IMG/VR virus record: IMGVR_UViG_2617270938_000005
Span: 1 to 43,652 of that record
DNA length: 43,652 bases
Strand: one strand, 5' to 3'
Source of the DNA: a virus
Lineage: Duplodnaviria; Heunggongvirae; Uroviricota; Caudoviricetes
The notes under the pieces were generated by a model. It did not search any database and was not told the DNA's origin. It worked only from the letters and a program-made list of their open reading frames with translations. Position numbers and translations under genes: made by a program. This document shows positions 4,888 through 43,379 of this stretch, one piece after another (positions within the stretch are counted from its first letter, which is position 1; each line of letters begins with the position of its first letter).

Positions 4888-6080
4888 GAGACCACCAGAT
4901 TAATATTGCTGACGGCGCAGGATGCTGACTGGTCAAAGGCAATATCCACGTTTGCCGCGGCTACGCCACCGGCAGACGTCCCGATCAGCAACTCGGTAAT
5001 GTCGTAATACCTGGCATTACCACCACTGACAACACCAAGGTTAGCCGGTGAGTAAACGCGACTGAGAAGAACGCTGGCGCCGATTGCCAGTGAGTTAATG
5101 TAGGCAGATACAGCCGCCTTTATCTCTTCGCCAACCTGGGATGTGTAGCCCGTAAGAGGTTCGATAGTGATTTTGACGTAAATGGGTACATCGACCGGCC
5201 TTGAAAAACCTACCGGGTGAGGGTTTCCGTACTTATCAGGCACAACAATCACCGTACTACCGTAGGGTGTTACGCCCTGCCCTTTCACACCACGAATGCT
5301 GTTTGCAATGACCGTCGCATCACCACCTTCTACAATGGCGGCGATTGAGTGCGGAGGCAGGCCATTTGCATCAGTGGTATCTGTATCGTTCTCATACAGC
5401 TTGTGTCGCGTTACGCCGCTGATATTTGCTATCGCGCCATCTACCGCCTCAAACGGCGTCAGAGACGGTAAAGCAACGCTCTGTGATTGCCGGACACGCA
5501 ATTCAGCATTTGTTTCGGCAGCAACGCCTACCGTAGCCGCTTGCGGGTTAGTTACTGATACCCAACCACGTGTCGGGGTGTTTATCTTATTGACTGCCCC
5601 GGCAGGGGCCGCCACAGCGCCAGCAACAGAACACGTCGCTGTAGCAATAACCGTCCCATCAATACCAATTGTCACCTGAGCAGGAAGATTCCAGATGATG
5701 CCGTTGGCATCTTTCACAGAGCCGTTTGTGATTAACGTTCCGGCCTCACCTTCGATCAGCTCATCGACCGTAGAATTTGTCGCAGCCCGGCGAGCGATGC
5801 CGTTAATTTTGACGTTACTGGTTAATGCATCGTCCAGCGCCGTCGACGGAGAAAATGACCGGTAAACAGAAATGGCCGTGTTGTTGGCATCATGAATGGC
5901 CAGAGCCACCAGAGCGACCATCTGGCCGTCTTTGCTGTCCGGGTCGAGATAGGCATCACTGCCATAAATCTGCTGAAAATAGCTAATCAGGGTGCTGAGT
6001 ATCGTCTGATAATCAGGCGCACTTATCCCCTCAGCGGTTACCGTTGCCGATAAGCCGAGTGTGTCGAGGTCCAGAGCCAT
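4884..6080 (-). CDS. baseplate J-like protein
   Basis: 398-aa ORF in baseplate position; size and position as in Mu/P2-type baseplates. Confidence 0.55.
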   Translation of the reverse strand: MALDLDTLGLSATVTAEGISAPDYQTILSTLISYFQQIYGSDAYLDPDSKDGQMVALVALAIHDANNTAISVYRSFSPSTALDDALTSNVKINGIARRAATNSTVDELIEGEAGTLITNGSVKDANGIIWNLPAQVTIGIDGTVIATATCSVAGAVAAPAGAVNKINTPTRGWVSVTNPQAATVGVAAETNAELRVRQSQSVALPSLTPFEAVDGAIANISGVTRHKLYENDTDTTDANGLPPHSIAAIVEGGDATVIANSIRGVKGQGVTPYGSTVIVVPDKYGNPHPVGFSRPVDVPIYVKITIEPLTGYTSQVGEEIKAAVSAYINSLAIGASVLLSRVYSPANLGVVSGGNARYYDITELLIGTSAGGVAAANVDIAFDQSASCAVSNINLVVS

Positions 6081-25477: not shown

Positions 25478-25950
25478 ACCTCAATCTCTCTGACCGTTCC
25501 GCCAGCCTCTTTGAATTTTGCAATCAGGCTGTCAGCCTTATGCTCGAACTGACCATAACCAGCGCCCGGCAGTGAAGCCCAGATATTGCTGCAACGGTCG
25601 ATAGCCTGACGAATATCACCGCGGTCAATCATCGGTAAAGCGCCACGCTCTTTAATCTGTTGCAGTGCCACAGCGTCCTGGCTTTTCGGAGAGAAGTCTT
25701 TCAGGCCAAGCTGCTTGCGGTAGGCATCCCACCAACGGGAAAGAAGCTGGTAGCGTCCGGCGGCTGTTGATTTGAGTTTGGGGTTTAGCGTGACGAGTTT
25801 GCGAGGGTGATCGGAGTAATCAGTGAATAGCTCTCCGCCAACAATGACGTCATAACCATGATTTCTGGTTTTCTGCCGTCCGTTATCAGTTCCCTCTGAC
25901 CACGCCAGCATATCGAGGAACGCCTTACGTTGATTATTGATTTCCACCAT
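25474..25950 (-). CDS. R: endolysin R (lytic transglycosylase)
   Basis: Near-identical to remembered lambda R sequence. Confidence 0.9.
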
Positions 25951-26257
25951 CTTCTATTCCGGCTTTTTTAGCAGCGAAGCGTTTGATAAGCGAACCAATC
26001 GAGTCAGTACCGATGTAGCCGATGAACACGCTCGTTATATAAGCGAGATTGCTACTTAGTCCGGCGAAGTCGAGAAGGTCACGAATGAACCAGGCGATAA
26101 TGGCGCACATCGTTGCGTCGATTACTGTTTTTGTAAACGCACCGCCATTATATCTGCCGCGAAGGTACGCCATTGCAAACGCAAGGATTGCCCCGATGCC
26201 TTGTTCCTTTGCCGCGAGAATGGCGGCTAACAGGTCATGTTTTTCTGGCATCTTCAT
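25934..26257 (-). CDS. S: holin S
   Basis: [20 protein letters not shown]... dual-start motif; lambda S-like. Confidence 0.9.
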
Positions 26258-26372
26258 GTCTTAGCCCCAATAAGGGGATTTGCTCTATTTATTTAGGAAT
26301 AAGGTCGATTACTGATAGAACAAATCCAGGCTACTGTGTTTAGTAATCAGATTTGTTCGTGACCGATATGCA

Positions 26373-26402
26373 CGGGCAAAACGGCAGGAGGTTGTTAGCG
26401 CG
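26373..26402 (-). terminator. GC-rich hairpin terminator downstream of tRNAs
   Basis: 10-bp stem GGCAGGAGGT/ACCTCCTGCC followed on minus strand by GTTTTG. Confidence 0.5.
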
Positions 26403-26499
26403 ACCTCCTGCCACCCGCTTTCACGAAGATCATGTGTAGAAGGCCGCAGCGTAACTATCACTGATGAATTCAGGATAGCCAGTGGCTACGGCTCAGTTA

Positions 26500-26575
26500 T
26501 GGTGCTGTTTAACGGACTTGAACCGCTACCCATTCGCTTACAAGGCGACCGCTCTACCATTGGAGCTAAAACAGC
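26500..26575 (-). tRNA. tRNA, anticodon UGU (Thr)
   Basis: Manual cloverleaf: acceptor GCTGTTT/AAACAGC, D-stem GCTC/GAGC with GG, anticodon loop CTTGTAA, T-loop TTCAAGT, encoded ACCA 3' end. Confidence 0.65.
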
Positions 26576-26580
26576 ATGTT

Positions 26581-26655
26581 TGGCGGGACAGCGTGGACTC
26601 GAACCACGATAAGAAGGTTAACAGCCTTCCGTAATCACCTTTATACGACTGACCC
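26581..26655 (-). tRNA. tRNA-like, anticodon GUU (Asn), with stem mismatches
   Basis: Anticodon arm GAAGG-CTGTTAA-CCTTC, T-arm CGTGG-TTCGAGT-CCACG, CCA end; one T-T mismatch each in acceptor and D stems. Confidence 0.5.
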
Positions 26656-26659
26656 AAAT

Positions 26660-26700
26660 AAAAAAAGCCACCGTTGCAACTTAAGAGTCACTAACGGCAG
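26660..26700 (-). terminator. candidate tR'-like hairpin plus T7 run downstream of the late promoter
   Basis: Minus strand GCCGTT...AACGGTGGC followed by TTTTTTTATTT. Confidence 0.35.
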
Positions 26701-26711
26701 CTTACCTTCTA

Positions 26712-26741
26712 ATTATGGCTAAATGGATAATTGCATGTCAA
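26712..26741 (-). promoter_or_regulatory. late promoter pR'-like
   Basis: Minus strand TTGACA - 18 nt - CATAAT overlapping the 3' end of Q. Confidence 0.55.
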
Positions 26742-27237
26742 GGCCTTTAACAGCAACATGCTTAACTTTCTCAACACGTTTACGCATTTTGAAAGCATTT
26801 TGCATTGGCTGGTACAAAACAAATAACGACGCTTTCAGGATGTCGTCAATTTCGTTTCTACAGGTTGCCAGTGAAGGTTTTCTCCATCCCTCGCCACCAC
26901 GTCCACACATCTTGCGTGGCTTTGCAGTCGCGTGATAGTAGGATGCAATTGCTCGCTTAGATGAACCATGAGCGTAGTAGCTGAGGAGGATGCCAAAGGC
27001 TTTCTTGTCAATGTACATGACGGAATCGACGACCTGAGAAATCAACATTCCATCATCATCATTACACATTGGCCTTGTCATAACTCTTCCCGGCTCTACG
27101 CTCTCCATGAACTTCGCTATTACGCTGCTCATGCGCTTTTCCAGGCGGCCTGAATAAACCCATGCGCCCCACAGTTCAAGCCATCCATTCAGCCAATCGT
27201 GCTGTTCTTTGGTGAGGTTTAGTTCTCTTATACCCAT
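26719..27237 (-). CDS. Q: antitermination protein Q (phage 21/82-type family)
   Basis: Position upstream of lysis genes; [10 protein letters not shown] motif resembles the WGAW motif of Q82-type antiterminators. Confidence 0.65.
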
Positions 27238-27899
27238 GCGCCTTCTCCCTGTACCTGAATCAATGTGAGGTTTCCGCAGAACACTGCGCCGGTATCGATA
27301 TACATCTGGTTGGCAAATTTGAGTGGTTTCACTGCTGGCGTATGACCAAAGATGAACGTGTCCGCGCCTTTGATTTCTTTCACGATCCCGTCTTGTGAGT
27401 TGCCGATTCGTTCGCGGTTCCAGATTACCTGCTGAGGATCAACTGGCTTTCCAAATTCGTATTCGTTACAAGGATAATCGGCGTGGCAGATGACATATTT
27501 TTTACCTTTGCTCACCAGTTCGATGATTAACGGAAGTTCTTCTGCTTTATGGGCAAGAGCTTTAGCCAGAATCTCTTTGTCGTAATCGAGATTAAAGAAC
27601 CAGCCACCGCCATTAAGCAGCCAGTGATTAACGTTTCCACGCTCTGATAAGCCATCAATCATCATTTGCTCATGGTTTCCACGTACAGCTCTGAACCAGG
27701 GGAATGTGATTAATTCCAGGCATTCAACGTTCTCTGCACCACGATCAACCAAATCGCCCACCGAGATAAGCAGGTCTTTTTTGTTGTCGAATCCAATCGT
27801 ATCCAGTTTGTTCATCAGGTTCGTGTAGCATCCGTGCAGATCGCCAACTACCCAAATATTTCGGTATTTGCTGCCATCAATTCTTTCGTAGATATTCAT
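27228..27899 (-). CDS. ninI: Ser/Thr protein phosphatase (lambda NinI-like)
   Basis: Metallophosphatase motifs GDLHG, GDLVDRG, GNHE. Confidence 0.85.
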
Positions 27900-28507
27900 G
27901 CAGCCTCACTTCTGCTGTTTCGCAGTTTTTTAAGTTTCTGTTGATACTCCGCCTTGATGGTCCTGCACTCTTCGACAGTCCAGCGATGGCGGTTATGGTT
28001 TGATTCGATTTCGTCTACTGCTTCCTGCCCGATGCGGTTAATCAGTTCGACGCGATACGGAACGAGATTTCCGCTTTTGTGCTGGTTGCACACCACGCAT
28101 TGCTTGTGAATATTGCGTTCATCAAATCGGAGTTGAGGCGCCGCAGCAGTTGTCCGGTAATGCCCGGCATCCCACTGAGCAGACGTGAGCGTTCCGCACG
28201 AGATACATGGTAAGTCGCGGTCTCTTTCTCTGATGAAGGCGTTTACGGCTTGTTGGGCTTGTTTAATCCAGTAACTGCGGGGCTTTAAGGCGAGTTTTCG
28301 AATCTTAAGTTTATCTTTCTGTTTCTGATCCTCTCGTCGTCGTTTCTTCTCTGCTGCTTTTTCCGCTTTTTCGCGTTCTTTACTTCGTCGTTCGAGTGCT
28401 ATCTTGGTTCCACACTCTGGAGAGCACCACCACTGATTAGCGAATGCAGGGTGAAACCATTCCCGACATTCATCGTTTTTACATCGTCTTCGCGCTGGTT
28501 TAGCCAT
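27896..28507 (-). CDS. ninG: NinG/Rap recombination protein
   Basis: Near-identical to remembered lambda NinG. Confidence 0.85.
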
Positions 28508-28670
28508 CGTCTTCTTCCTCGTACATTGAGCTATTCGGATCGCTCATCAGTTCTGCGCAGCAGTGCTCACACACGTGAACTTCCAGCACATGCAGCTTCT
28601 GACCGCAGTTAGCGCACGTTAAAGCTCGCTCGACACTTCCTTGTTCGTAACTTCGATTTTGGTCAATCAC
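28500..28670 (-). CDS. ninF: NinF-like small zinc-finger protein
   Basis: GTG-start 56-aa [13 protein letters not shown]...CANCGQ...CEHCC, overlaps ninG start; not in ORF track (under 60 aa). Confidence 0.6.
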
Positions 28671-28849
28671 CTTGTTTTCCTCGCACGTTCTCTAAGCCAC
28701 CGGATATCCCACAGGTGAGCCGTGTAGTTGAAGGTTTTTACGTCAGATTCTTTTGGGATTGGCTTGCGTTTATTTCTGGAGCGTTTCGTTGGAAGGTATT
28801 TGCAGTTTTCGCAGATGATGTCGGTGAAACTTCGTCGCTGTCGCCTCAT
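28667..28849 (-). CDS. ninE: NinE-like protein
   Basis: [23 protein letters not shown]...; ATGA overlap with ninB stop. Confidence 0.6.
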
Positions 28850-29286
28850 GCCGCCCTGTCTCCCCATCTTGCTTTCCACTCCAGAGCCAGTCGCGCTTCG
28901 TCTGACCACTTAACGCCACGTTCTGTACCGAATGCCTGTATAAGCTCTAATAGCTCCGCAAATTCGCTTACTCGCATCCTGCTGGTTGACTGGCCTATTA
29001 CCACAAAGCCATTCCCGGCAAGGTTAGGAACAACGTCCTGCTGCTTTAATGCTGCGGTAAACACACACTTCCAGCTTTCTGCATCCAGCCAGCGACCATG
29101 CCATTCAACCTGACGAGAGACGTCACCTAAGCAGGCCCATAGCTTCCTGTTTTGGTCTAAGCTGCGGTTGCGTTCCTGAATGGTTACTACGATTGGTTTG
29201 GTTGGGTCTGGAAGGATTTGCTGTACTGCGTGAATAGCGTTTTGCTGATGTGCTGGAGATCGAATTTCAAAGGTTAGTTTTTTCAT
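28846..29286 (-). CDS. ninB: NinB (Orf) recombination mediator
   Basis: [31 protein letters not shown]... near-identical to lambda NinB. Confidence 0.9.
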
Positions 29287-29359
29287 GACTTCCCTCTCCC
29301 CCAAATAAAAAGGCCTGCGATTACCAGCAGGCCTGTTATTAGCTCAGTAATGTAGATGG

Positions 29360-29650
29360 TCATCTTTTAACTCCATATACCGCCAATACCCGTTTCATCG
29401 CGGCACTCTGGCGACACTCCTTAAAAACCAGGTTCGTGCTCATCTTTCCTTCCCGTTCTTCCCTGGTAGCAAACCGGTAATACACCGTTCGCCAGACCTT
29501 ACCTTCGATAACCAGAAGACCTGCCCGTGCCATTTTAGCCGCGGCCTGATTTATGCTGGTTACTGTTGCGCCTGTTAGCGCGGCAACGTCCGGCGCACAG
29601 AAGCTATTATGCGTCCCCAGGTAATGAATAATTGCCTCTTTGCCCGTCAT
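29360..29650 (-). CDS. ren: Ren protein
   Basis: Near-identical to lambda Ren. Confidence 0.85.
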   Translation of the reverse strand: MTGKEAIIHYLGTHNSFCAPDVAALTGATVTSINQAAAKMARAGLLVIEGKVWRTVYYRFATREEREGKMSTNLVFKECRQSAAMKRVLAVYGVKR

Positions 29651-30348
29651 ACACTTGCTCCTTTCAGTCCGAACTTAGCTTTGATTTCTGCGATCTTCGC
29701 CAGAGCCTGTGCACGATTTAGAGGTCTACCGCCCATGACAGGAAGTTGTTTTACTGGTTCAGGGATCGCCTCACCACGGTTAATTCTCGCAGTCATATGG
29801 ACAAGCTCATCTGCGGCCTTACGGCGTAATTCCGCATCAGTAAGCGCATTGGCCCGCATGTTCTGATACAGGTTGGTAACCAGCCAGTAGTGCGCGTTTG
29901 ATTTCCACGGATAAGACTCCGCATCCGGATACAGGCCTCGCTTCCGGCAATACTCGTAAACCATATCAACCAGCTCGTTGACGTTTGGCAGTCCGGCGAT
30001 AACGGATGCTTCTTCCCGGCACCATGCAACAAACTGCCCGGGTGATGGCAGAAATGGTCGATTCTGCCGACGGGCTACGCGCATTCCTGCGTTAACCTGT
30101 TCCATTGTGGTGATCCCGTTTTCCCGGAAAGCCAGAACCCACTGGCGGCGGATTTCGTTCAGTTCGTTCTGGTCACGGTTAGCCAGGCTCGCCGGGAAAG
30201 TTGCCAGTAACTGGCTGAACACACCGTTGATGATCTGCGCTACCTGCTGTACCTGCGGCTTTTCGTCGTACTGTTCCGGCATGTTGTTGGCGATCCGACG
30301 CATCTGCTCACGGTCAAAGTTAACCATCTGTGCGGCGATGTTTTTCAT
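29647..30348 (-). CDS. P: replication protein P (DnaB loader)
   Basis: Near-identical to lambda P. Confidence 0.9.
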   Translation of the reverse strand: MKNIAAQMVNFDREQMRRIANNMPEQYDEKPQVQQVAQIINGVFSQLLATFPASLANRDQNELNEIRRQWVLAFRENGITTMEQVNAGMRVARRQNRPFLPSPGQFVAWCREEASVIAGLPNVNELVDMVYEYCRKRGLYPDAESYPWKSNAHYWLVTNLYQNMRANALTDAELRRKAADELVHMTARINRGEAIPEPVKQLPVMGGRPLNRAQALAKIAEIKAKFGLKGASV

Positions 30349-31244
30349 AGATCCACCCCGTAAATCCAGTCTGTGTTTGTCAGGTCGAGTTTTGGTTTGC
30401 TTGCTGTCACGACTGCCTGTTGCTTGTTACGGTTGATTTCGAGCTGGGTCCACTTGTCGCGGAGTTTGGCCGGACTCAGCACGTTACCGGACCAGAAGTT
30501 GTCCTGGCAGGCCCAGCGGAAAAGCACACACATATCGCGGTGGTTACGTCCGTCACGTTCACGCATCAGGCGGATATCGTTAGCCCACCCAGCAAAATTC
30601 GGTTTTCTGGCTGATGGCGCGATGGTCTTCACCATGTCAAACATCCACTCTGCGGCGGTCAGGTCTTCTGCTGTTCCCCACTTGCTGCCGCTCTGAATTG
30701 CAGCATCCGGTTTAACCACAGAAAGATCGTTTTCTGGCTGGTCAGAGGATTCGCCAGAATTCTCGGACGAATAATCTTTTCTTTTTTCTTTTGTAATAGT
30801 GTCTTTTGTGTCCCCCTGTTTTGAGGGATAGCAATCCCCCAATTTGAGGGATGTTTTATCCCTCGTTTTAGGGGATTTTCCCTCGTTTTGAGGGATACAC
30901 CATTCTGAGATGTTTTTATTTGGTCCAAACATGCCGCCTTGCTGCTTGATAATATTCATTCTGACGAGTTCTAACTTGGCTTCATTGCACCGTTTGACAG
31001 GTAACTTTGTAATCTCGCTAAGTTGAGAATCGGTGATTCTGTCCATTGGTTTATTCCACCCATAGGTTTTACGCAGAATGGCAAGCAGCACTTTAAACTG
31101 TCGCTTGGTCAGATCTGCGCCCGAATAAGCCTCAAGCAGCATATTTGATAGTCTGGCGTAACCATCATCGAGATCTGCCACATTACGCTCCTGTCCGGCA
31201 AAGTTACCTCTGCCGAAGTTGAGTATTTTTGCTGTATTTGTCAT
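30345..31244 (-). CDS. O: replication initiator O
   Basis: Near-identical to lambda O; contains ori iterons. Confidence 0.95.
   Translation of the reverse strand: MTNTAKILNFGRGNFAGQERNVADLDDGYARLSNMLLEAYSGADLTKRQFKVLLAILRKTYGWNKPMDRITDSQLSEITKLPVKRCNEAKLELVRMNIIKQQGGMFGPNKNISEWCIPQNEGKSPKTRDKTSLKLGDCYPSKQGDTKDTITKEKRKDYSSENSGESSDQPENDLSVVKPDAAIQSGSKWGTAEDLTAAEWMFDMVKTIAPSARKPNFAGWANDIRLMRERDGRNHRDMCVLFRWACQDNFWSGNVLSPAKLRDKWTQLEINRNKQQAVVTASKPKLDLTNTDWIYGVDL
30770..30900. repeat. ori-lambda: four iterons (TCCCTCAAAACGAGGGA-like) plus AT-rich region inside O
   Basis: Plus strand CCCTGTTTTGAGGGATA, CCCCCAATTTGAGGGAT, ATCCCTCGTTTTAGGGGAT, CCCTCGTTTTGAGGGATA adjacent to T-rich tract. Confidence 0.85.
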
Positions 31245-31573: not shown

Positions 31574-31676
31574 TTCTTAAGATTTCCAATAGTGAATAGC
31601 TAGTTGAAAGGTATACGTGGAAACGCATATGGCCTTAGTTGGTCAGATATCTTTGAACTCGCTTTTCAGCGACGTA

Positions 31677-31703
31677 GGACGAATGTCCGTTGTTACAAAG
31701 AGC
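31677..31703 (-). promoter_or_regulatory. nutR (boxA GCTCTTTGTAACAACG plus boxB hairpin GGAC-AUUC-GUCC)
   Basis: Between cro stop and cII; matches nutL arrangement at 34344-34371. Confidence 0.55.
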
Positions 31704-31714
31704 GGCTCCGCTTA

Positions 31715-32746: not shown

Positions 32747-33289
32747 GTGGCTAAAAAAGGCGACTTTAAGCCTACCCAGAAAGAGGTTGACCAAGCTATT
32801 ACTCGCTTGAAAAAAGTAACTTTTAGCGGAGTTACATGGACCGGAAGTGAGGGACGAACCCCAATCTGGTTTAAATTGGATCTCAAAGCTTTTGATGAAA
32901 TTGGCAACCCAATCACAGGCATAAGATTTATGCTTCACTGGCGTCCTCCTATCGTTGAAGGGGTGGATATAGTGAAGATTTCATTTGTGATGTTTCTTCA
33001 TGACAGGCGCATTTACGCGCTTGATCCGTACCCTGCGGATAACAAGCCACACCGTAATAAATCTATAGTGAACCATCCAGATTTTGTTGAGGTGGCTCGA
33101 GGTCCTCACTATCACATGTACTTCGAATCAGCTGGGGAAGAAATTGCACTTAAGCTTGAAACGAACATCAAGCCAGATGATTTTTTTGGCTACTGGAATT
33201 ATTTTTGCGAGGCGCTTAATATCATATATGAAGGCAGCCCACCTTTACCTAATCAAGATAAATCAGGTCAGTTATCATGGGAAATGTAA
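32747..33289 (+). CDS. hypothetical protein A of cI-linked two-gene cassette (rexA position)
   Basis: 180-aa ORF with GTG start 46 nt after cI stop; no recognisable family; overlaps downstream ORF by 13 nt. Confidence 0.5.
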   Translation: MAKKGDFKPTQKEVDQAITRLKKVTFSGVTWTGSEGRTPIWFKLDLKAFDEIGNPITGIRFMLHWRPPIVEGVDIVKISFVMFLHDRRIYALDPYPADNKPHRNKSIVNHPDFVEVARGPHYHMYFESAGEEIALKLETNIKPDDFFGYWNYFCEALNIIYEGSPPLPNQDKSGQLSWEM

Positions 33290-34053
33290 CGTGTTCAACA
33301 GTCATATCTAAGCTCGGGTTTGAATGCCACCCAATGAGCGACACGTTGCTGCGCGTTATTAGTCCATTCACATACTACGATGATTGTGAGCAGATAAGTG
33401 TATTCGTTCAAGAGATGAGTGGTCAGTATAGGGTTACAGACTACTGCGATACATTGATGAATATTGAATCACGCGGCATCCACCTGACTAAAAAGAAAAT
33501 TGATCTGATCAGGTCATCACTCGCTTCGCAAGGAATTTCATTAAATGACTCTGGAGAGATATCTGCGTGGGCAGATGAGTCGTCCGTTGGACAGGTAACT
33601 GCAAATGTTATTCGTGGTGGGATTCTTGCATCCGCCCAAACTGCTGATTGGTATGCTGAGGTCAAAGACGATAAGTTCGAAAAATGTGTAATCAGTTACT
33701 TAAAATCAGCAGGGCTTGGGAAGCGACTAGTCTTAAAGGAAAAAGTGAAAGGTATTAGTGGGCATAACATTACTGTTCCGTTAACGCTAAGGAATGAGTC
33801 TCGACTAATACCACCAAAACGCGGGTTTACGGTAAGCCTTGCCAGCAGTAAGGGATGGAATACTGCCCACTCAACAGTTGGGAAGATTGTTGACTTAAGT
33901 CAGGTCGTTCCTGACATAAACAATAGATTTGTAATAGTTGACAGCGATGGGTTAACACCTGAGCTACAGCAACTATCATTACTATTTAATGATACCGCAC
34001 GAGTGTTGCCATTCCATACCAGAGACTCTTGGATTGAGTCTCTGGTAGCCTAG
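33277..34053 (+). CDS. hypothetical protein B of cI-linked two-gene cassette (rexB position)
   Basis: 258-aa ORF (alternative start at Met 33334); followed directly by terminator; no recognisable family. Confidence 0.5.
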   Translation: MGNVTCSTVISKLGFECHPMSDTLLRVISPFTYYDDCEQISVFVQEMSGQYRVTDYCDTLMNIESRGIHLTKKKIDLIRSSLASQGISLNDSGEISAWADESSVGQVTANVIRGGILASAQTADWYAEVKDDKFEKCVISYLKSAGLGKRLVLKEKVKGISGHNITVPLTLRNESRLIPPKRGFTVSLASSKGWNTAHSTVGKIVDLSQVVPDINNRFVIVDSDGLTPELQQLSLLFNDTARVLPFHTRDSWIESLVA

Positions 34054-34371: not shown

Positions 34372-34487
34372 TACGTGGCTGAAAAGCCAGATCACCCAAC
34401 CACATGAGCTGTGGGATGCAATGCCGAAGCAACCGTCTCAGGAGGAGCTTCGAGATTGCATCACCAAAGTTTATTCGGGAGGAATCT

Positions 34488-34760
34488 ATGTCCAGAAAAA
34501 CAGAATTTAAAGGCACCTCAGCTTCTCGTCGTAGAGCTCGTCGCGCAAACCTGCAAAGTCAGGAGGCGATTAGCTCCGACAAGCTACACAGACCAACCCC
34601 CTCTCGAGTGGTCTTGCAATGCAAGCGCAAACCAGCAATGAGAGCAGAAGTAATAACACTGACAACGTTGACCAGAAAATATGAAGGCTCAACTTGTCTT
34701 CCAAATGTAGCTCTTTACGCGGCAGGCTACAGGAAATCAAAACAACTGACAGCAAGGTGA
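34488..34760 (+). CDS. N: antitermination protein N (P22 gp24-like)
   Basis: Arg-rich motif SRRRARRANLQ; C-terminus LPNVALYAAGYRKSKQLTAR matches P22 gp24 LPGVALYAAGHRKSKQITAR; GGGAGG RBS. Confidence 0.8.
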   Translation: MSRKTEFKGTSASRRRARRANLQSQEAISSDKLHRPTPSRVVLQCKRKPAMRAEVITLTTLTRKYEGSTCLPNVALYAAGYRKSKQLTAR

Positions 34761-40329: not shown

Positions 40330-40952
40330 AACAAATGTCACTAATTGAGATGGATGGATTCCTGAAAGGTAAATGCATCCCACGAGATTTAAAGGTTAAC
40401 GAAACAAACGCTGAATATCTGGTGCGTAAATTTGCTGAAGCGGAGGCCAAGATTTTGGCGCTGGCCGAAGACCAACAGAAAGCGATTGAGTCAATTAAGC
40501 AGGCTGATTCGGCTGTTAAGTTGGCACACGAGAAGTTTTCGGCGCTGGCGGCGGAGAATGTGGCATTGCGTGAAGTGGTTGAACGCATGATAAACCAATT
40601 TGCAATGAGCGGTATTTCTCCAGAGGAGAAGTCAATCAATCCCGCAGCGTCGCTCATGTTTGATGCTAAATCAGCACTGTCTATGTCAGCAACCGACGCC
40701 TTCACGGCTGAAATTCGGGCGGAGGCTCGCAACGAGGGGATTAACTATACCGCAAGTCGTCTTGCTGCTGCTTTCAACCACGGATTTATCAATAAGTCTT
40801 TACGTGAAGTTTTCGACGTTACGCGCATGATTCTGTCAGCGAAAGAAGAGTTGGCTAATGAACCGCATCCGATTGATGGCCTGTCTGGTGAATATGCGGA
40901 GAAATCCCTAGAAGAATGGGCGGAACAGATTCGCAAAGGAAGCAGCCAGTGA
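40308..40952 (+). CDS. hypothetical protein (coiled-coil)
   Basis: 214-aa ORF. Confidence 0.4.
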
Positions 40953-41224
40953 ATATCGACACCACGATAACGCTCGATACGGCCCTAAATACCGGTCTGG
41001 CACTTCTCGGTTGGCTTTACATCATGTCCCGTACATGGCGATGGCTGGGTTCCATTTTCCTGAAACAGTGGAAAAAACGGCGCAAACAGGAACTGCGCCA
41101 GAAGGCATTAGAAGCGTTCTATGACGCATTTGAACTTGGCAGCATTGAACCAGGCACAACAGCGAGGATAGCGACAAAAGGCGACCTGATGATAGTGATG
41201 TTCAGACAGGAGAAAACAAAATGA
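40916..41224 (+). CDS. small membrane protein (putative)
   Basis: Hydrophobic segment LALLGWLYIMS followed by basic stretch; true start uncertain. Confidence 0.3.
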   Translation: MGGTDSQRKQPVNIDTTITLDTALNTGLALLGWLYIMSRTWRWLGSIFLKQWKKRRKQELRQKALEAFYDAFELGSIEPGTTARIATKGDLMIVMFRQEKTK

Positions 41225-41445
41225 CAGAACAGACGATGACAAATCGCGAACTTGTGGATGCCGCGATTGAACTTGCTGGCGATTTTTATTCCATGATGGG
41301 TTACGAGCATCGACCTGGTTTTAAGTATTGGGAGTCACCGCATCCGCAAGAACAACAGGTGTTTGAAATGGCTTGCCGTGCTTTTGAGTTTATTCGCGGT
41401 TCTGATGTGATGGACGCCGTTGCCGACTTGGAGGATGAAGAGTGA
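41221..41445 (+). CDS. hypothetical protein
   Basis: 74-aa ORF, coupled. Confidence 0.3.
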   Translation: MTEQTMTNRELVDAAIELAGDFYSMMGYEHRPGFKYWESPHPQEQQVFEMACRAFEFIRGSDVMDAVADLEDEE

Positions 41446-41849
41446 ACAAGATTGACTATCAGGCACTGCGTGAAGCGGCAGAGAAAGCCGGTGAAGATAA
41501 GTGGCAGGCTAAAAAAATAAATGGTGATTTTTTTGTTATTCGTCACGGTAGTTATACAAGACAGCATGGCTACACATCGTATCAACCCATTGCGGAGATT
41601 GATTGTAAGCCAGTCCGGGATTTTGTTGCCAAGGCTAATCCGGCTACCGTGCTGGAATTACTGGATGAACTGGAAGCAGCAAAAAAGCGCATTGCAGAAC
41701 TGGAAGCGCGGGAAATATCGCTCCCGGAACGTAGCAGCATGCTTCATCGAACAGATTTTCACGATGATTACCAAACGGTAATGGCATACAAAGTTTCTGA
41801 AGTCATCGCTGCAATCCGCGTCGCTGGCATTCGCATCAAAGGAGAGTGA
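41442..41849 (+). CDS. ead/Ea22-like protein
   Basis: N-terminal IDYQALREAAEKAGEDKW resembles the conserved start of ead/Ea22-like prophage proteins. Confidence 0.5.
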   Translation: MNKIDYQALREAAEKAGEDKWQAKKINGDFFVIRHGSYTRQHGYTSYQPIAEIDCKPVRDFVAKANPATVLELLDELEAAKKRIAELEAREISLPERSSMLHRTDFHDDYQTVMAYKVSEVIAAIRVAGIRIKGE

Positions 41850-41850
41850 T

Positions 41851-42114
41851 ATGGCAACTTTGACAAAAAAAGAACAAGCATGGTTGAGCGAATTACAGGA
41901 CGTTCTTGATCGCTGCCCATCACCGAAAAAAATTGGTTTTTACACCATTGGCGATAAAAGCATTTACCTGTATGACCTGCGCCGCATGGATGAAATCATG
42001 GAGGCTCTTGATAATCGTTCGTCGATGGATTGGTGTGTTGCTGTCCATGATATGAATGCAGGGTTTGATGAAAAGATTTTGTTCCCCTCATCAGTTGAAA
42101 GCACTGCGGGTTAA
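41851..42114 (+). CDS. hypothetical protein
   Basis: 87-aa ORF. Confidence 0.3.
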   Translation: MATLTKKEQAWLSELQDVLDRCPSPKKIGFYTIGDKSIYLYDLRRMDEIMEALDNRSSMDWCVAVHDMNAGFDEKILFPSSVESTAG

Positions 42115-42124
42115 GGAGTAACAC

Positions 42125-42658
42125 ATGACCACTATTACCAAAGAACGTATTGAATTGTTCATTAAAAATCCGCTTTATAACGGGCTTACCCGTGGCGAAC
42201 AAATGGAACTGGCACGGATTGCACTGGCATCGCTGGAAGCAGAGCCTGTAAGCCAAACTTACAACTTGCCAGAATTAATCGAAGGCATGGAAGTTTCCAT
42301 TGATGTAAGCACTTGTGATGCTGATTTCGGTAATCGCTATTTCGGCACCGTCACCGAGGCGTTAGAACTTGATACAGCCAAGAATGGTTACATCCTCCTG
42401 GTTCAGGACGCAGAGCCAAACTTCGATGTAAATGGCAACTCTCCGGTAACTCCGGATGGTTGGATAAGCTGTAGTGATCGAATGCCGGAAGACACCAAAA
42501 TGTTACTGGCATTTAGTCAAGGTGAAATCGTGGCAGCATATTGGAACTGGGTTGTAAATCCAATTGATTACAAAAAATATAGAGCTTTCACGTATTTATC
42601 AGGAAATATCTTGGATGACGTAACTCACTGGATGCCGCTACCAGAGCCTCCACTTTGA
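42125..42658 (+). CDS. DUF551-like protein
   Basis: C-terminal ...HWMPLPEPP typical of DUF551. Confidence 0.5.
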   Translation: MTTITKERIELFIKNPLYNGLTRGEQMELARIALASLEAEPVSQTYNLPELIEGMEVSIDVSTCDADFGNRYFGTVTEALELDTAKNGYILLVQDAEPNFDVNGNSPVTPDGWISCSDRMPEDTKMLLAFSQGEIVAAYWNWVVNPIDYKKYRAFTYLSGNILDDVTHWMPLPEPPL

Positions 42659-42754
42659 AAGCGAAGCTTATACATATCTTTTACATCAGCAATCTATTGT
42701 TAATCTCCAATCAATGTTACGTTGTCATCTCACTCATGCTTTGGAGGTAGTGAT

Positions 42755-42934
42755 ATGTCTTGTCCAAAATGCGGTTCTGGAAATATTGCAAAAGAAAAAA
42801 CAATGCGTGGATGGTCTGGTGATTATGTGTGCTGCGATTGCGGATACAACGACTCTAAAGACGCATTTGGAGAGCGTGGTAAAAACGAGTTTGTCAAAAT
42901 TAATAAAGATCGCGAAGGCAACGGAAAAAGCTAA
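42755..42934 (+). CDS. small zinc-ribbon protein
   Basis: MSCPKCGSG...CCDCG with GGAGG RBS. Confidence 0.4.
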   Translation: MSCPKCGSGNIAKEKTMRGWSGDYVCCDCGYNDSKDAFGERGKNEFVKINKDREGNGKS

Positions 42935-42999
42935 TTTATTTATTCATATATGAAAACAATGTAACCAATATTCGAATTGAAGAACTGAAAGAACACCAA

Positions 43000-43022
43000 G
43001 CCGCCTGATGGCGGTTTTTTAT
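43000..43022 (+). terminator. rho-independent terminator
   Basis: GCCGCC-TGAT-GGCGG followed by TTTTTTATT. Confidence 0.6.
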
Positions 43023-43034
43023 TGGAGACAAGAA

Positions 43035-43379
43035 ATGTCAGATTTGGCTATGAAGGTTTTGAAATGGCAATCGACTGGCGATGTTGGCATCAGTAGCGCA
43101 ACTCTTGCCTCAATCGCATGTGGACTGAAAAAGAATATCTATGGTCATCACTTCGGCGCTCCACATGACGCAGCAGACTTCCGGCGATGCGTTGCACTTG
43201 TTGAGCAGATTCCAGAAATCAGAGATTCATTCGACAAGGTTGCAAAGCGCGTTCCGGCATTCAAAGAAATCCTCAACGAATGGGATTCACTCGTTGCTCT
43301 GTTGAAGTCTGAAATGAAGACGTACGGGAACAAAGCACCAGAGACTTACAGAAGAATCAGCGAGCTACGCAAGGACTAG
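43035..43379 (+). CDS. hypothetical protein
   Basis: 114-aa ORF starting 13 nt after the terminator, GGAG RBS. Confidence 0.4.
   Translation: MSDLAMKVLKWQSTGDVGISSATLASIACGLKKNIYGHHFGAPHDAADFRRCVALVEQIPEIRDSFDKVAKRVPAFKEILNEWDSLVALLKSEMKTYGNKAPETYRRISELRKD

Follow-up and report, generated by a model that had tools for sequence, protein, structure and literature searches.

The window analyzed here is the whole 43,652-nucleotide (nt) sequence of a Caudoviricetes virus (IMG/VR record IMGVR_UViG_2617270938_000005), and the subject of this analysis is its nin (ninR) region, the block of genes between ren and the antiterminator gene Q. On the minus strand, the window reads ren, the terminator tR2, ninB, ninE, ninF, ninG, ninI and Q, which is the phage lambda arrangement without ninC, ninD and ninH. 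We conclude that this compact block is very probably one of the ordinary mosaic forms of the lambdoid ninR region, and one that has been catalogued before. The two joints that close the block up are shared with other phages and with many bacterial genomes, and they are therefore best read as circulating mosaic alleles rather than as deletions from lambda. The arrangement itself is not new: classic phages and many RefSeq prophages contain it and are annotated with it.

Boundary joints in place of ninC-ninD and ninH

Comparison of the window with lambda (NC_001416) by blastn gave three colinear, gap-free blocks of 98.5%, 96.8% and 97.7% identity, and the sole departures from lambda in the colinear nin alignment were two clean gaps of ~1.0 kb and ~0.19 kb. 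Nothing in the window corresponds to lambda positions 41085-42096, which hold ninC and most of ninD, or to 43044-43232, which hold ninH. When lambda NinC, NinD and NinH were searched by tblastn in six frames of the whole 43.6-kb window (E up to 10), nothing better than E = 0.1 was returned, and the one notable match consisted of 8 NinD residues overlapping ninE. An earlier note on this DNA, made from the sequence alone, had described a nin region lacking these three genes, had proposed alignment with lambda as the check, and had named homologues of ninC, ninD or ninH in other frames as the finding that would speak against it; the alignment was run, no such homologues appeared in the six frames, and the description holds.

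The same note had called the remaining nin genes near-identical to lambda and had placed ninB directly against ninE and ninG directly against ninI. Both statements agree with our results, as identity to lambda at the protein level is 145/146 residues in NinB, 54/60 in NinE and ~210/221 in NinI, and an ATGA overlap is found at each of the two joints. The shared genes (ninB, ninE, ninF, ninG and ninI) are 93-98% identical to lambda at the nucleotide level, and the lambda block (40,644-43,889) occupies the same place between ren and Q, with the same tR2 and the same ATGA packing. Lambda differs from the window in having ninC, ninD and ninH, a GTG-start ninE allele and another Q.

Read in the sequence, the first joint is ninB...GGGCGGC-ATGA-GGCGACAGCG...ninE and the second is ninG...GAGGCTGC-ATGA-ATATCTACG...ninI. 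Both lie exactly at gene boundaries, and no more than 2-3 codons into ninE and ninI the homology with lambda picks up again in register. The 10-mer GGCNGCATGA has only 2 occurrences in the window, precisely at the ninB and ninG ends, and in the 8.3-kb lambda locus it is likewise found only at the ends of ninB and ninG, where lambda holds its extra genes. Related Ala-Ala-stop/Met ends close lambda ninC (GAAGCTGCATGA) and ninI (AAGGCGCATGA). The count of this 10-mer is not significantly enriched (2 in the window vs 0.6 expected, with 14/100 shuffles reaching 2); the informative part is its positions at the two joints, not its number.

Absence of ~1.0 kb and ~0.19 kb relative to lambda, between flanks that are 97-98% identical to it, would suit spontaneous, lineage-specific deletions of the nin5 type from a lambda-like ancestor, which would have removed or weakened the nin terminators and altered Q expression or N-dependence. 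The nin genes are dispensable for plaque formation and the region is known to tolerate deletions (PMC10695390). Despite this, we consider such an origin highly improbable. Between the lambda ninB-ninC and ninD-ninE boundaries, or the ninG-ninH and ninH-ninI boundaries, there is no microhomology that yields these joints, and a direct lambda parent is therefore rejected. The distribution of the joints, the ninE allele and the terminators, described below, point the same way.

The same joints in other phages and in Escherichia coli genomes

Phage 2B8 (NC_049952), phage phi458 (OP434518) and a prophage of Escherichia coli (E. coli) 5CRE51 (NZ_CP021175) carry an identical ren-ninB-ninE-ninF-ninG-ninI block, which aligns to the window in one gap-free piece at 97-98% identity with point differences only. 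At the nucleotide level, all three share both joints save for one A/G polymorphism. The joint with Q is of the lambda type in 2B8. Window DNA matches phi458, as well as phage 21, through Q. The RefSeq architecture of the 5CRE51 prophage is identical to that of the window over ren, NinB, NinE, NinF, NinG, the phosphatase, Q, tRNA-Asn, tRNA-Thr and a lambda-family holin. Direct reading of the sequences showed the ninG-ninI joint in 2B8, in phi458 and in three prophages of E. coli.

Two classic phages have part of the arrangement. Phage 21 (AJ237660 / OL657228) contains the same ninB-ninE ATGA joint but for one A/G polymorphism and is annotated accordingly, and it shares with the window the ninE-ninF-ninG order, a Q21-type antiterminator, and tRNA-Asn and tRNA-Thr genes downstream of Q. 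Unlike the window, which has a full ninI and no ninH remnant, phage 21 is without ninI and instead carries a remnant of ninH, 10 codons long, to which the last few ninI codons are fused; its S21 pinholin also differs from the lambda-type lysis genes (S107 holin) of the window. Phage 434 (OL657226) aligns with the window in one piece over the ninG-ninI joint, with no ninH, and has the ninE allele that is linked to a dam methyltransferase gene, as the window does, but dam itself lies between its ninB and ninE.

The frequency of each joint was estimated with 60-bp junction probes run by megablast against 5,426 complete E. coli genomes, in which a genome was counted if at least 80% of the probe was covered. 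The E-value cut-off was strict, so that two half-matches cannot be joined into a full-length match. By these approximate counts, the gene end of ninB leads directly to ninE in 56 of the 5,426 genomes and to ninC, as in lambda, in 118, and dam is joined to ninE in 1,118; ninG leads directly to ninI in 735 and to ninH, as in lambda, in 444. Among these E. coli genomes, the joint without ninH outnumbers that of lambda, and the usual occupant of the slot after ninB is dam, not ninC-ninD, with an insertion sequence (IS) element also seen there. The whole 2.2-kb block was matched in one piece by at least 11 of the best 40 complete E. coli genomes; in all, ~2,300 E. coli genomes gave a match in that comparison.

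The presence of the joints in phage 21, 2B8, phi458, 434 (ninG-ninI) and tens to hundreds of E. coli genomes argues against lineage-specific deletion from lambda. It also bears on whether the region was collapsed by an assembly or sequencing artefact, which we regard as next to impossible, given that the reading frames are all intact with functional overlaps and that the identical arrangement is found in independent complete genomes and phage isolates.

The ninE allele and the dam cassette

The window ninE starts ATGAGGCGACAG and dam-linked ninE alleles start ATGAGACGACAG. Over the gene, the window matches the dam-linked alleles at 180/183 nt, compared to 171/183 for the ninD-linked, GTG-start allele of lambda. 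The 5' end of ninE is thus that of the dam-linked allele and not lambda's, and the arrangement therefore does not descend from lambda.

In prophages that carry dam, the cassette is flanked by GGGCNGCATGA; ninB ends in GGGCTGCATGA and dam ends in GGGC[A/G]GCATGA, and the two ends form a near-perfect direct repeat. A crossover in this ~11-bp repeat around dam would give exactly the joint of the window, since GGGCGGCATGA followed by the dam-linked ninE allele is the exact predicted product. The dam-ninE junction is also 20-fold commoner than the empty joint, and the empty ninB-ninE joint exists in two variants, ATGAGG and ATGAGA. These observations would be accounted for if the ninB-ninE joint arose recurrently and independently by loss of dam through the GGGCNGCATGA repeats, with the window representing a relatively recent loss. 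However, the two variants are equally explicable as polymorphism after a single origin, and the window ninB is closer to that of lambda and 5CRE51 (434-436/441 nt) than to the two dam-linked ninB alleles examined (414-422/441). We regard recurrent, relatively recent dam loss as quite improbable.

The opposite direction of change has also to be considered, with the empty slots being ancestral and ninC-ninD, dam and ninH being later, moron-like cassette insertions in other lineages. Unrelated alternative cargo in the same place (ninC-ninD, dam or an IS element in the first slot, ninH in the second) is typical of insertion hotspots, and the empty ninG-ninI joint is commoner than ninG-ninH. On the other hand, the empty ninB-ninE joint is the rarest state of its slot, and the 34-nt ninD/ninE and 23-nt ninH/ninI overlaps imply co-adapted joints rather than simple insertions. 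We regard an ancestral empty state as possible but rather unlikely.

Because GGCNGCATGA marks both variable slots in lambda and in the window and also flanks dam, this conserved gene-end motif, in which Ala-Ala-stop overlaps with the Met that follows, might itself be a site dedicated to crossover by short homology, at which the dam, ninC-ninD and ninH cassettes are swapped. Such a site fits the long-standing idea that short conserved boundary sequences are the crossover points for module exchange, and if it were true, the compact genome would represent an 'empty cassette site' state. We put this forward tentatively, as an idea that is doubtful at present.

Gene layout of the nin block

Coordinates are positions in the window, and genes were taken from a mechanical listing of open reading frames (ORFs) with their translations (Table 1). 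All nin products score above their Pfam gathering thresholds. The block has the site of a lambdoid ninR region, between O, P and ren on one side and Q on the other, and the same packed stop/start overlaps: ATGA at ninB/ninE, GTGA at ninE/ninF, 8 nt at ninF/ninG, ATGA at ninG/ninI and 10 nt at ninI/Q. All lambdoid nin regions have been described as chains of interlinked genes joined by ATGA motifs (PMC8022706, citing Kroger and Hobom 1982). NinB (Orf) is encoded upstream of NinG (Rap), consistent with the stated rule for ninR that Orf/NinB lies upstream of a Rap/NinG or RusA resolvase (PMC4118853), and NinI, which is highly identical to lambda orf221, has a metallophosphoesterase domain of the calcineurin-like type. 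The span that the earlier note had given for ninB to ninI, 27896-29286, is accurate for ninB through ninG, but ninI lies outside it, at 27228-27899.

Table 1. The nin region of the window and adjoining features. Identities are to phage lambda unless another phage is named; aa, amino acids.
Feature	Positions	Strand	Basis or comparison
O	30345-31244	-	ORF listing
P	29647-30348	-	ORF listing
ren, final gene ahead of the nin block	29360-29650	-	96/96 aa, 291/291 nt identical to lambda ren
tR2 intrinsic terminator, GC hairpin and T-run in the ren-ninB spacer	29303-29333	-	31/31 vs O276 'TR2 Rho-independent transcription terminator'
ninB (orf), recombination mediator, 146 aa	28846-29286	-	Pfam NinB 184 bits; 145/146 aa
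ninB-ninE joint GGCGGCATGA, ninB TGA overlapping ninE ATG	28846-28855	-	ninC-ninD in this slot in lambda; dam in many prophages
ninE, 60 aa, ATG start (GTG in lambda)	28667-28849	-	Pfam NinE 143 bits; 54/60 aa
Counterpart of O276 'tR3 terminator region', inside ninE	28749-28779	-	30/31 match; C-rich, G-poor transcript stretch
ninF, 56 aa, GTGA overlap with ninE stop	28500-28670	-	Pfam NinF 47 bits; 54/56 aa
ninG (rap), branched-DNA / Holliday-junction endonuclease, 203 aa	27896-28507	-	Pfam NinG 302 bits; ~196/204 aa (96%)
Counterpart of O276 'tR4 terminator region', inside ninG	28239-28279	-	41/41 match; C-rich, G-poor stretch
ninG-ninI joint GGCTGCATGA, ninG TGA overlapping ninI ATG	27896-27905	-	ninH in this slot in lambda
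ninI (orf221-type Ser/Thr protein phosphatase), 223 aa	27228-27899	-	Pfam Metallophos 61 bits; 95.5% aa identity over 221 aa (~210/221) vs lambda NinI
Q antiterminator, phage-21 type, downstream end of early-right operon	26719-27237	-	Pfam Phage_antitermQ 90 bits

The ends of ninG and ninI also differ from those in lambda. The first ATG of the Met-Met pair that opens lambda ninG is ACG in the window (28508-28510, minus strand), a change that is synonymous in the overlapping ninF, and NinG translation therefore starts at the second Met, giving 203 aa. The C-terminus of NinI is 2 aa longer than lambda's because the ninI-Q joint of the Q21 type reads ATGG, not ATGA.

Terminators, antitermination and the comparison with nin5

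Beyond gene content, the earlier note had suggested natural deletions akin to nin5, with possible consequences for tR2/tR3 termination and Q expression. The nin5 deletion confers N-independence. It removes lambda 40,503-43,307 (PMC3349717), and by lambda gene coordinates its endpoints fall within ren (at the 3' end) and within ninI, so that its span includes tR2 and ninB to ninH. The window resembles nin5 in having a shortened P-Q interval and in missing non-essential nin genes. Unlike nin5, it keeps tR2, ninB, ninE to ninG and the tR3 and tR4 regions, and ren, ninB, ninE, ninF, ninG and ninI are all complete, with joints at gene boundaries rather than inside genes.

The terminator features were taken from the depositor's annotation of the lambda-type phage O276. 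All 73 nt of the ren-ninB spacer, which includes tR2, are identical to lambda (73/73), and a terminator scan placed the tR2 hairpin at 29334-29311. Apart from tR2, the promoter and terminator scan of the region found nothing above shuffled expectation. The counterparts of the tR3 and tR4 regions lie within genes that the window has kept; in a profile of C minus G along the lambda nin transcript, strongly C-rich, G-poor stretches are seen only at the ninB 5' end and in ninE and ninG, and no such stretch is found in ninC, ninD or ninH.

An antiterminator of the N type (PF25694, 110 bits; 34404-34760, plus strand) is also encoded in the window; its C-terminus resembles that of P22 N, and it has an Arg-rich motif. 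A nutR-like site was read by eye downstream of cro (31659-31704, minus strand), where a boxA-like CGCTCTTT is followed by a boxB-like hairpin TCGCTGAAAAGCGA. Judged from sequence, the ninR set of tR2, tR3 region and tR4 region thus appears to be retained together with an N homologue and a putative nutR site, and no change in termination or in the control of Q is indicated.

Neither nin5-like part of the earlier interpretation is supported by these comparisons. Natural deletion akin to nin5 is opposed by the boundary joints with their ATGA overlaps, by the sharing of those joints and by the dam-linked ninE, and the suggested consequences for tR2/tR3 termination and Q expression find no support, given the match to O276 at tR2, tR3 and tR4 (Table 1) and the presence of N. 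That interpretation is therefore partly supported, correct in gene content but unsupported in its nin5-like meaning. Together, the shared joints and the retained terminators largely refute an origin by deletion from a lambda-like ancestor.

The window Q shows no similarity to lambda Q. The top sigma-70-like match of the region, TTGACA-18-CATAAT (11/12; 26712-26741, minus strand), is located where the Q gene ends (3'), close to the place at which the late promoter pR' is annotated in phage 21, and is a candidate for its counterpart.

A model for the compact region

The reading that best accounts for these results is that of an ordinary mosaic variant. The lambdoid ninR region is a non-essential, tightly packed gene chain running from the replication genes to Q, with two variable slots that each lie right after a gene end of the GGCNGCATGA type. 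The slot after ninB, which holds ninC-ninD in lambda and dam in most E. coli prophages, is empty here, as is the slot after ninG, which holds ninH in lambda. Both empty-slot joints probably pre-existed as alleles among lambdoid phages and prophages, and they were most likely combined here by homologous recombination in the flanking, ~97%-identical nin genes. NinB/Orf and NinG/Rap are themselves recombination functions, and shuffling, acquisition and elimination of genes is the norm in ninR (PMC4118853).

As for expression, the nin genes would be translationally coupled and transcribed from pR, and antitermination by N at nutR would carry transcription past the terminators so that Q is expressed as in lambda. 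The accessory functions of NinC, NinD and NinH would be lost. The only regulatory effect we infer is that the distance from pR to Q would be shorter by ~1.2 kb.

Several points weigh against this reading. The positions of tR3 and tR4 rest on the O276 annotation and the C-rich, G-poor profile, not on primary mapping data, and Rho loading could still be altered by the absence, upstream of tR3, of 1 kb of translated RNA. The junction-probe counts depend on the sensitivity of megablast with 60-bp queries. Finally, these data are compatible with either direction of change at each slot, cassette loss or cassette gain.

Wider mosaic of the window

Downstream of the nin block, the window has a tRNA-Thr(TGT) and a tRNA-Asn(GTT) gene (26500-26655, minus strand) between the Q21-type antiterminator and the lysis genes, and both phage 21 and the prophage of E. 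coli 5CRE51 have this tRNA pair at the corresponding site. The late-control and lysis segment (25934-27237, minus strand) is a hybrid, in which a phage-21-type Q is followed by a lambda-type S107 holin and not by the S21 pinholin. In phage 21 itself, the fusion of the ninH remnant (10 codons) with the final ~17 nt of ninI (GGGAGAAGGCGCATGGG) occupies positions 4899-4955, right ahead of Q21, which gives phage 21 the look of a ninH-ninI-Q21 arrangement that has undergone deletion. In the window, the ninI-Q21 joint of such an arrangement is still intact (27228-27250).

Two genes encoding proteins of 180 and 258 aa (32747-34053, plus strand) lie directly downstream of a cI-like repressor gene, in the position of lambda rexA/rexB. 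In PADLOC, their products weakly matched the candidate defence system PDC-M24A/B (E 4e-4 and 6e-7), and in Pfam, DUF1828 scored above the gathering score and DUF6978 below it. From these matches and their position, the pair may be a prophage-encoded exclusion or defence cassette.

The structural half (1-25000) is not lambda-like. Over ~75% of its length, it shares ~94% identity with prophage-type phages of Klebsiella, in which baseplate J, an XkdK-like protein and a PBSX-type terminase are among the annotated features. The window as a whole is thus a mosaic in which an early region of the lambda type is joined to a different virion module.

Significance

Of the missing proteins, NinC resembles PAPS reductases. 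NinH, which is Fis-like, binds and bends DNA (PMC7166090). Both are dispensable accessory proteins, and the prediction is that the prophage does without them and keeps the recombination pair, the phosphatase and a lambda-like logic of N, terminators and Q. The practical lesson of the joint frequencies is that lambda is not to be taken as the reference ancestor of the nin region. Beyond correct annotation, the finding probably has little import, and it adds a further case of modular mosaicism among the lambdoid phages.

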